Shown one piece after another: positions 22,617 to 24,138 of a stretch of 24,800 bases of DNA (the stretch's first letter is position 1; every line of letters begins with the position of its first letter). A model generated the notes under the pieces. It worked only from the letters and a program-made list of their open reading frames with translations. It did no database searches and was not told where the DNA came from. A program made the translations under genes and the position numbers. Origin of the DNA: a virus (lineage: Duplodnaviria > Heunggongvirae > Uroviricota > Caudoviricetes); IMG/VR virus record IMGVR_UViG_2872192773_000009, one strand, 5' to 3'.

Positions 22617-22777
22617 ATTTTCTGTTTTCATGCATCCTTGCGAATCTTTATCTGATGTTGATTCAACAGGTTAGTGTGAAAACTCTTCTCGGTGCATTTT
22701 GATTTTACCCTACGCATCGGGAAAAATTGGTGGTCAAATCTGGGATCAGGTTAGTTCGATAATGGAGTGACCCCCAT

Positions 22778-24040
22778 ATATCCCTTACCGACGCAAAAAT
22801 CCGCACCCTCAAGCCTTCTGATAAACCCTTTAAAGTCTCCGATTCTCACGGTCTGTATCTGCTGGTCAAGCCGGGTGGCTCCCGCCACTGGTATCTCAAA
22901 TACCGTATTAGCGGTAAAGAATCCCGCATTGCGCTGGGTGCCTATCCAGCCATCTCCCTGTCTGATGCGCGACAGCAACGTGAAGGTATCCGTAAAATGC
23001 TGGCGCTGAATATCAACCCGGTACAGCAGCGGGCTGCTGAACGTGGCTCACGAACACCGGAGAAAGTTTTTAAAAACATGGCGCTGGCGTGACATAAAAG
23101 TAACAGGAAATGGTCGCAGAACACCGCCGACCGTCTGCTTGCCAGCCTGAACAATCACATCTTTCCGGTCATCGGGAACCTACCTGTATCAGAACTTAAA
23201 CCCCGTCATTTCATTGACCTGCTGAAAGGGATCGAGGAAAAAGGTCTGCTGGAGGTTGCGTCCCGCACACGGCAGCACCTGAGTAACATAATGCGCCATG
23301 CGGTCCATCAGGAGTTAATCGATACGAACCCTGCAGCAAACCTTGGCGGCGTGACCACACCTCCTGTCAGACGGCACTATCCTGCCCTGCCGCTGGAGCG
23401 GCTGCCTGAACTGCTTGAACGTATTGGGGCATATCATCAGGGCCGTGAACTGACCCGGCATGCCGTTCTGCTGATGCTGCATGTGTTCATTCGCTCCAGT
23501 GAACTGCGTTTCGCCCGCTGGTCAGAGATTGATTTCACAAACCGAGTCTGGACGATACCCGCGACGCGAGAACCCATTATTGGCGTGCGTTATTCCGGCC
23601 GCGGGGCAAAAATGCGAATGCCGCATATCGTCCCCCTCTCAGAACAGTCCATCGCCATTCTGAAACAGATTAAGGATATCACCGGTAATAATGAACTGAT
23701 CTTCCCCGGCGACCATAACCCGTATAAGCCAATGTGTGAAAACACGGTCAATAAGGCACTGCGGGTGATGGGTTACGACACGAAAAAGGATATCTGCGGT
23801 CACGGCTTCCGGGCAATGGCATGCAGTGCGCTGATGGAATCGGGTTTATGGGCAAAGGACGCAGTAGAACGCCAGATGAGTCATCAGGAGCGCAATACCG
23901 TGCGCATGGCTTATATTCATAAGGCAGAGCACCTGGAAGCCCGCAAAGCGATGATGCAGTGGTGGTCGGATTATCTGGAAGCATGCCGAGAATCTTATGC
24001 ACCGCCTTATACAATTGGTAAAAATAAGTTTATCCCATAG
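22778..24040 (+). pseudogene. P4-type tyrosine integrase, pseudogene (in-frame TGA at 23090; apparent ATG to ATA start change)
   Basis: Single frame encodes (I)SLTDAKIRTLKPSDKPFKVSDSHGLYLLVKPGGSRHWYLKYR...NMALA*HKSNRKWSQNTADRLL...HGFRAMACSAL...YIHKAEH..., typical of P4-like integrases next to asn tRNA genes (for example the Yersinia HPI integrase). The stop sits where homologues have Trp. Confidence 0.7.
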
Positions 24041-24138
24041 TATACTAACGAATCCCACACTCTGGCAAATTACCACCACCTCTACAGGAGGTGGTTCTAT
24101 ATAGACTTTTATCAACTTCATGACGAAAAACACCTATT

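Follow-up and report, generated by a model that had tools for sequence, protein, structure and literature searches.

A disrupted integrase gene at asnT as the probable left-end scar of a yersiniabactin island in Shigella flexneri

Overall organization of the asnT locus

Here we describe the asnT locus of a 24,800-nucleotide stretch of DNA (hereafter, the window), in which a tRNA-Asn gene is followed by an interrupted integrase gene, a short piece of native island sequence and the end of an IS911 element. The features are listed below in order along the window.

21643–22440, plus strand: mtfA, a 265-residue open reading frame with a Pfam Peptidase_M90 domain; the E. coli annotation at the same position is mtfA.
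22494–22522, plus strand: sigma-70-like promoter, TTGACA-17-TAATAT, just 5′ of asnT (consensus scan, 10 of 12 matches).
22541–22616, plus strand: asnT, tRNA-Asn (anticodon GTT), directly after mtfA (ARAGORN; Rfam tRNA, 72.6 bits).
22601–22617, plus strand: attL, the 17-bp attachment core CCAGTCAGAGGAGCCAA, overlapping the 3′ end of asnT and matching the published attO.
22618–22777, plus strand: island-side spacer between attL and int, with a native ribosome-binding site GGAG at 22764–22767, 10 nt 5′ of the ATA codon (read from the sequence).
22778–24040, plus strand: pseudogene of the high-pathogenicity island (HPI) integrase, int (intB), 420 codons plus TAG, with the lesions ATA at codon 1, V101M and TGA at codon 105.
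23291–24040, plus strand: residual 249-residue open reading frame, catalytic domain only, annotated as a gene by gene callers, with a weak ribosome-binding site on its 5′ side.
24041–24138, plus strand: native int–ybtS intergenic spacer, 98 bp, cut off by the insertion sequence (spacer comparison).
24139–24800, minus strand: IS911 right inverted repeat (IRR) and 3′ portion of orfB with the transposase catalytic domain, running off the window; 100% identical to annotated IS911.

The tRNA-Asn(GTT) gene is identified as asnT by the presence of mtfA directly on its 5′ side, as in E. coli, and the site named in an earlier note on this DNA is thus correct. An Rfam scan of 22300–24800 returned nothing but the tRNA above threshold. 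The sigma-70-like sequence is likely to be the asnT promoter, from which read-through into the island integrase has been described (PMC8209727).

The 17-bp core is identical to the attO repeat tabulated in PMC2801613, and its island-side flank, ttttctgttttcatgc, also agrees with the HPI-type attO sites of that study. The core is present as a single copy in the window (22601–22617). In a S. flexneri-type locus (L005; CP026871.1), the sole other copies of CCAGTCAGAGGAGCCAA sit at the positions of asnW and asnU expected from gene order. The direct repeat of the asnT 3′ end that the earlier note had envisaged did not materialize: no second, island-end (right) copy of the core was found in the window or in L005. 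The E. coli HPI is itself described as lacking the right repeat (PMC8209727).

The integrase reading frame and its lesions

The int frame starts 162 bp downstream of asnT. Translation of 22778–24040 yields 421 codons with one internal stop and a terminal TAG (24038–24040), and the other two frames across the same interval contain 16 and 31 stops; the frame is therefore continuous except for the one interruption, as had been noted from the sequence. The internal stop is the TGA at 23090–23092 (codon 105), with C as the next base. To judge the lesions, we used 80 close matches from a scan of one genome per species (the relatives). Codon 105 is TGG (Trp) in 79 of these 80 other-species relatives, the remaining one being a misaligned hit of 47% identity (L049), and the description of the stop as a nonsense codon at a conserved Trp therefore stands. 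Codon 1 is ATA (22778–22780), where 78 of the 80 relatives have ATG and the other two are uninformative; the departures at these two codons come from a misaligned hit and from a truncated contig. The third lesion, V101M, is an ATG at 23078–23080.

An alternative start is not available: no in-frame ATG, GTG or TTG occurs from the upstream TAA (22760–22762) to the ATA. The bases directly 5′ of the start codon, GGAG included, are the same in ATG-start alleles. The int sequence is identical to that of L005, and it differs from an intact copy in Raoultella planticola (L015) at 4 of 1,263 nt (M1I, V101M, W105* and one synonymous change). A gene only four nucleotides away from an intact copy is a young pseudogene, and its decay is recent.

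The repaired translation matches Pfam Arm-DNA-bind_3 (residues 3–87, 8e-24), Phage_int_M (98–191, 2e-24) and Phage_integrase (224–384, 8e-20), and it shares 48.9% identity with Int of phage P4 across residues 1–417 (tblastn against X51522/NC_001609, E = 5e-123), confirming a P4-type integrase. These E-values, together with 99.4% nucleotide identity to E. coli HPI loci, exclude a chance match. The phage P4 integrase, the prototype for arm-binding DUF4102/Arm-DNA-bind_3 tyrosine recombinases targeting tRNA genes, has the same three-domain layout and also lies beside the 3′ end of a tRNA gene. It differs from the window gene, which is island-borne, is a pseudogene and targets an asn tRNA; the target of phage P4 is leuX. 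The motifs IRSSE (R239), HGFRA (H342 and R345), SHQER (H369) and MAYIH (Y379) are unmutated in the translation, and we take these five residues to be the catalytic ones, as in the family.

The TGA at codon 105 and the ATA at codon 1, with no in-frame start upstream, place the gene among the pseudogenes of its family, and on this sequence evidence int has probably lost its function. Low-level initiation at ATA and read-through of UGA-C are both conceivable, and an integrase that is still produced or active might arise from the two combined or, alternatively, from catalysis by the 249-residue open reading frame. ATA is a permitted if weak initiator in translation table 11, and the NCBI pipeline PGAP calls the E. 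coli ATA alleles intact coding sequences; the TGA is followed by C, and UGA-C is the weakest termination context in E. coli; and the catalytic motifs are unmutated. We nevertheless consider continued activity highly improbable. Two inefficient steps multiply, no structured element lies 3′ of the TGA (z = −0.9), and the 249-residue frame has neither DNA-binding domain (both the arm-binding and the central domain are absent) and a poor ribosome-binding site. Furthermore, no second attachment site or cargo is left as a substrate, and the island has likewise lost its excisionase end. The 249-residue 'integrase' should accordingly be annotated with caution, as a pseudogene fragment. Selenocysteine insertion or other programmed recoding at the TGA was considered and rejected, given the lack of notable structure on its 3′ side (the same z = −0.9) and the retention of Trp (TGG) in 79 of the 80 relatives.

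Distribution of the two alleles

The two lesions have very different distributions. A 61-mer spanning the TGA has no exact match in complete E. coli genomes, all 1,876 genome hits being mismatched, and codon 105 is TGG in the E. coli loci read at that codon (L001, L002, L013 and L099). Seven of seven independent S. flexneri-type assemblies, complete genomes included, combine ATA, ATG at codon 101 and TGA at codon 105 with one and the same IS junction. By contrast, the exact 40-mer bearing the ATA is present in 919 of 1,973 complete E. coli genomes, among them Nissle 1917 and ATCC 11775, and PGAP annotates these ATA-start int genes as intact.

Each lesion is a single G-to-A difference, as a sequencing or assembly error confined to one record could be. 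That both are such errors is vanishingly unlikely, because the seven independent assemblies share them and the ATA is found in the 919 complete E. coli genomes as well; sequencing error is thereby excluded. The altered start noted earlier is therefore real, being ATG in nearly all relatives, but it is not a private decay of this lineage. ATA is a common inherited allele of the E. coli HPI, which is older than the decay in this lineage and says less about decay than the TGA does. Hundreds of E. coli ATA-start HPI integrases, whose function is only presumed, are thus called intact. The ATA-start allele, found in roughly half of the HPI-positive E. coli, might conceivably encode an integrase that is deliberately attenuated yet still works.

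The remnant derives from the yersiniabactin island

A 1.8-kb query (22400–24200) was covered to at least 80% in 2,364 complete E. coli genomes, and the best E. coli matches are 99.4% identical across the asnT–int stretch; the window gene is the same gene as HPI int. In all E. coli loci inspected from this query, int is followed by ybtS, ybtX, ybtQ and the remaining yersiniabactin cluster. A tRNA-Asn gene lies on the same strand in 64 of the 80 relatives, nearly always about 162 bp upstream, as in the window.

The 98-bp segment between int and the IS is the most discriminating part of the locus. It is 100% identical in Klebsiella pneumoniae ATCC 13883 and 98–99% identical in E. coli and Raoultella. 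Among the fetched loci it is present only where linked to ybtS (E. coli, K. pneumoniae ATCC 13883, R. planticola and one metagenome-assembled genome) and in S. flexneri-type remnants; the other 76 integrase loci of asn-tRNA islands lack it, as does L099. As the spacer is confined to ybtS-bearing loci and S. flexneri-type remnants, the island is specifically the yersiniabactin HPI, which narrows the earlier reading of the locus as the remains of an asn-tRNA-associated island.

The short hairpin that had been noted downstream of int lies within this spacer (24075–24095; 9-bp stem, 3-nt loop, z = −2.2). It is native HPI spacer sequence, found in intact islands too. As a terminator it was rejected: it has no T-run, and an intrinsic-terminator scan of 22400–24300 was negative.

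Integrases 70–95% identical to this one head many unrelated asn-tRNA islands, and L099 carries a 420-residue integrase at asnT followed by CBASS-like cargo. A remnant of some other asn-tRNA island with a near-identical integrase (of pks type, an ICE or a defence island) has for these reasons to be weighed, and we judge it very unlikely. Besides the missing spacer in L018–L094 and L099, protein identity of 98–99.8% to the repaired int is reached, among the compared loci, only by the ybtS-linked copies L001, L002 and L015–L017 (L099 was unscored), and the non-ybt relatives L018–L094 do not exceed 95%.

The yersiniabactin HPI thus remains the source, and the HPI/ICE integrase (int/intB of the E. 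coli HPI and of Klebsiella ICEKp) is the same gene as the window int; the protein of the K. pneumoniae ATCC 13883 HPI is 98% identical to the repaired window gene. The window and the HPI share the 17-bp asn-tRNA core, the 162-bp spacing from the tRNA and the spacer toward ybtS. They differ in that the window frame is broken (TGA105), its first codon is ATA, and neither cargo nor an island right end is present. Of the features expected of an HPI, the window has an int beside an asn tRNA with the CCAGTCAGAGGAGCCAA core, and it has neither ybt/irp/fyuA cargo 3′ of int nor a second 17-bp repeat at a right end. Only the 98-bp int–ybtS spacer survives beyond int, and we therefore describe the locus as a remnant and not as an island.

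IS911 in place of the island cargo

The IS end, TGAAGTGGTCAACAAAAACTGGCC, starts at 24139, and the following 661 bp (24140–24800) are 100% identical to annotated IS911 copies on S. flexneri virulence plasmids, in agreement with the IS911 end named earlier. The partial open reading frame of the IS matches Pfam rve and an NCBIfam IS3 transposase model (248 bits), and IS911 meets the spacer with its right, orfB-proximal end. The match to native HPI sequence ends exactly after position 24139, about 95 bp short of the expected ybtS stop. The full IS911 in locus L097 is 1,249 bp long with ends TGAAGTGG...CCACTTCA (read by eye), and its gene calls comprise either a 100-residue helix–turn–helix frame and an rve frame or a fused 389-residue product. 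An inverted-repeat finder run on the whole IS911 reported nothing because its ends share only short exact seeds.

Because the window stops inside IS911, the evidence for loss of cargo comes from genomes identical to it. Matching chromosomes (complete, 4.46–4.59 Mb) were retrieved by an exact-protein look-up with the window MtfA. Window positions 11643–24800 are 100% identical over 13,158 bp to LR213452.1, the chromosome of S. flexneri AUSMDU00008355 (PMC9376355), and CP034060.1 (S. flexneri FDAARGOS_535) differs at four positions. The locus reads int′, IS911, shiA′, IS600, amn, yeeN, yeeO, cbl in AUSMDU00008355 and its relatives. The sequence beyond IS911 in S. flexneri-type genomes, GGTACTGGGAGC..., is shiA from nucleotide 624; accordingly, position 24800 of the window is predicted to be followed by the rest of IS911 (about 590 bp) and then by shiA, GGTACTGGGAGCATTGTGGG....

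No ybt gene occurs within 8 kb beyond IS911 in the identical genome and six relatives. Of the two possibilities raised in the earlier note, that the cargo has been lost or that it lies beyond the IS, the first is thus the one borne out: a shiA fragment, amn, yeeN and yeeO follow IS911 in the identical genomes. No target-site duplication of 3–4 bp surrounds IS911 (left, ...CCTATT; right, GGTACT...), which fits a rearrangement or deletion and not a simple insertion.

A simple insertion of IS911 would leave the island intact, with the yersiniabactin genes just past the window. The window does end within the IS, and there is a precedent in E. coli S6, in which the IS3-family element ISEc52 lies inside ybtS and the island is retained. 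This reading is nonetheless most improbable, given that in the identical genome and six relatives the IS borders on shiA′, with no ybt genes within 8 kb, and that the target-site duplication is absent.

The extent of the deletion can be estimated from E. coli MCJCHV-1, in which the equivalent interval measures 34,537 bp. It contains ybtS, ybtX, ybtQ, ybtP, ybtA, irp2, irp1, ybtU, ybtT, ybtE and fyuA, and in addition what is left of the adhesin gene yeeJ, a gene for a GT9 glycosyltransferase and the 5′ portion of shiA. Since shiA nucleotide 624 follows the IS without a target duplication, about 34.5 kb are gone. Measured against MCJCHV-1, the deletion exceeds the island, for the yeeJ/yeeL region and nucleotides 1–623 of shiA are gone as well.

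Proposed history of the locus

Taken together, the region is very probably the scar of the left end of the HPI in a S. flexneri chromosome, with a dead int and an IS911-bounded deletion of the cargo. In the history that we propose, the HPI would have integrated through its own P4-type tyrosine recombinase at the 17-bp core in the 3′ end of asnT, and the first int codon of the ancestral HPI copy would already have been ATA. Two more G-to-A transitions in the S. flexneri lineage would have produced V101M and turned W105 into TGA, which would end translation after 104 codons, within the DNA-binding half. Separately, one IS911 copy would have come to join the int–ybtS spacer straight to shiA nucleotide 624. 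About 34.5 kb would have been lost as this junction formed: the yersiniabactin genes (ybtS to fyuA) with the rest of the island to its right end, and beyond it the yeeJ/yeeL region and the beginning of shiA. The loss may have come about through recombination of one IS911 copy with another or through a one-ended deletion next to IS911. What is left, namely attL, the dead int and the 98-bp spacer, would have no partner attachment site, nothing to excise and no present role.

Within this history, what the gene is, its lesions, both IS junctions, the missing cargo and the agreement among assemblies are shown by the sequences, and the earlier complete island, the way the deletion took place and the succession of steps are inferred. 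That the island was once complete is the parsimonious reading; a segment already deleted could instead have arrived by homologous recombination. Neither IS911 junction (left or right) was present in 5,426 complete E. coli genomes, the search having covered E. coli collections, and no intermediate was seen, so that either route, two-IS or adjacent-deletion, may have been taken.

Comparison with other decayed island integrases

Decay of HPI integrases at this locus is also observed in E. coli. A 347-bp internal deletion of int (corresponding to window positions 22901–23247) is found in many E. coli genomes with the full island retained (L003, L004 and L006–L012), an ATA-start allele is exemplified by L002, and in E. 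coli 203740 the HPI body was lost independently, leaving an IS1-truncated int beside shiA. These alleles lie at the same locus and share the outcome, an island immobilized or lost. The E. coli HPI has been described as truncated and immobile, fixed at asnT and lacking a right repeat (PMC8209727). Unlike these alleles, the stop at W105, V101M and the IS911–shiA junction were unseen outside S. flexneri-type assemblies in searchable genomes.

The HPI integrase of Yersinia enterocolitica 1B, in papers of the Bach, Rakin and Carniel era, reportedly also carries a premature stop. The likeness is that a point nonsense mutation inactivates the integrase and stabilizes the locus, and the differences are the species, the mutation and the retention of the cargo.

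Discussion

The elements of this locus are of known kinds: the HPI integrase, asn-tRNA targeting, the decay of island integrases to pseudogenes and the IS-mediated shrinkage of Shigella genomes have all been described, and the scar itself is an ordinary genomic feature of published S. flexneri genomes. The yersiniabactin island is rarely present in EIEC and Shigella (PMC7545054). Our literature search found no paper specifically describing a S. flexneri HPI remnant.

It is tempting to ask whether the yersiniabactin island was lost from S. flexneri under selection, in a pathoadaptive deletion like the 'black holes' at cadA and ompT, instead of by neutral erosion through insertion sequences. We regard this as unlikely; if it were true, the remnant would mark a yersiniabactin-making ancestor that preceded the intracellular lifestyle.

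The mechanistic weight of the locus is small, and its modest value is historical. The remnant provides physical evidence that an ancestor of S. flexneri, or the donor of the segment, carried the yersiniabactin island, and it suggests that a single IS911-bounded event took both the island and a portion of shiA, the shikimate transporter gene.

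Eroded prophage at serU

The serU gene is the integration site of a heavily eroded prophage (window 1-21549), whose features, together with the insertion sequences that break it up, are as follows.

1311-2954: ipaH-type T3SS E3-ligase ORF, 547 aa, carried by the prophage
~3611-4517: IS600-like fragment, adjoining IS1
~4514-5287: IS1, beside the IS600-like fragment
10636-11870: full IS600, 99.8% identity to copies on virulence plasmid pINV
13442-15335: IS66-family element
15942-16251, minus strand: four-tRNA cluster, Gly(TCC), Thr(TGT), Lys(TTT) and a fourth whose anticodon is CAT
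20392-21432: prophage integrase, 346 aa, apparently intact
21460-21549: serU, tRNA-Ser CGA, the integration site

Compared with FDAARGOS_944, the closest complete 'E. coli' relative, the prophage in the window has lost by deletion a baseplate/tail-fibre block, a capsid-to-terminase/lysis block and an immunity/replication block. The ipaH-type ORF is intact in the window, whereas it is frameshifted in FDAARGOS_944. The full IS600 lies at the junction of the tail-sheath and tail-terminator genes. The tRNA with the CAT anticodon was assigned to Met by ARAGORN, and the NCBI pipeline (PGAP) annotates a tRNA-Ile at the matching position of FDAARGOS_944. The gene probably encodes an Ile2 tRNA modified with lysidine.

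Integrase alleles of the HPI in E. coli

ATA also stands in place of ATG at the first codon of the integrase of the yersiniabactin high-pathogenicity island (HPI) in roughly half of the complete E. coli genomes that are HPI-positive, 919 genomes in all (for example, 3379-4641 of the E. coli locus L002). Nissle 1917 and ATCC 11775 are among the carriers. In these E. coli alleles the integrase, which may or may not be translated, has no other in-frame start, yet the gene is called intact by PGAP.

A second widespread E. coli allele has an internal deletion of 347 bp, corresponding to window 22901-23247 (L003, L004 and L006-L012, at ~9835-10750 in each), and the yersiniabactin (ybt) cluster is complete in all of these loci. 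Because this allele is widespread in E. coli, the product of the 249-aa C-terminal integrase ORF occurs in ~16,000 blocks of the protein collection. E. coli 203740 (NZ_CP025913.1 4129063-4132164) has lost the body of the HPI independently: its ATA-allele integrase is cut short by an IS1, and an intact shiA comes immediately after.

Variation downstream of asnT

The asnT site can also hold different cargo. An E. coli draft genome (GCA_032722215.1; locus L099, 11140-19129), the MtfA protein of which is the same as that of the window, encodes an intact asnT integrase of 420 aa followed by cargo of another kind, including a further recombinase, a protein of the DUF4365/TPR type and a CBASS-like pair, in which a CD-NTase/SMODS gene accompanies an effector of the Cap15 type.

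In S. flexneri-type genomes, the surviving shiA fragment (nucleotide 624 to ~1114) is cut on its 3' side by IS600 (L097 13746-15456; L005, CP026871.1, 12098-15190). L005 has an additional IS at the 3' side of this fragment and an additional IS1 near serU. Insertion sequences therefore accumulate between asnT and amn, a hotspot that differs from one S. flexneri-type genome to another.
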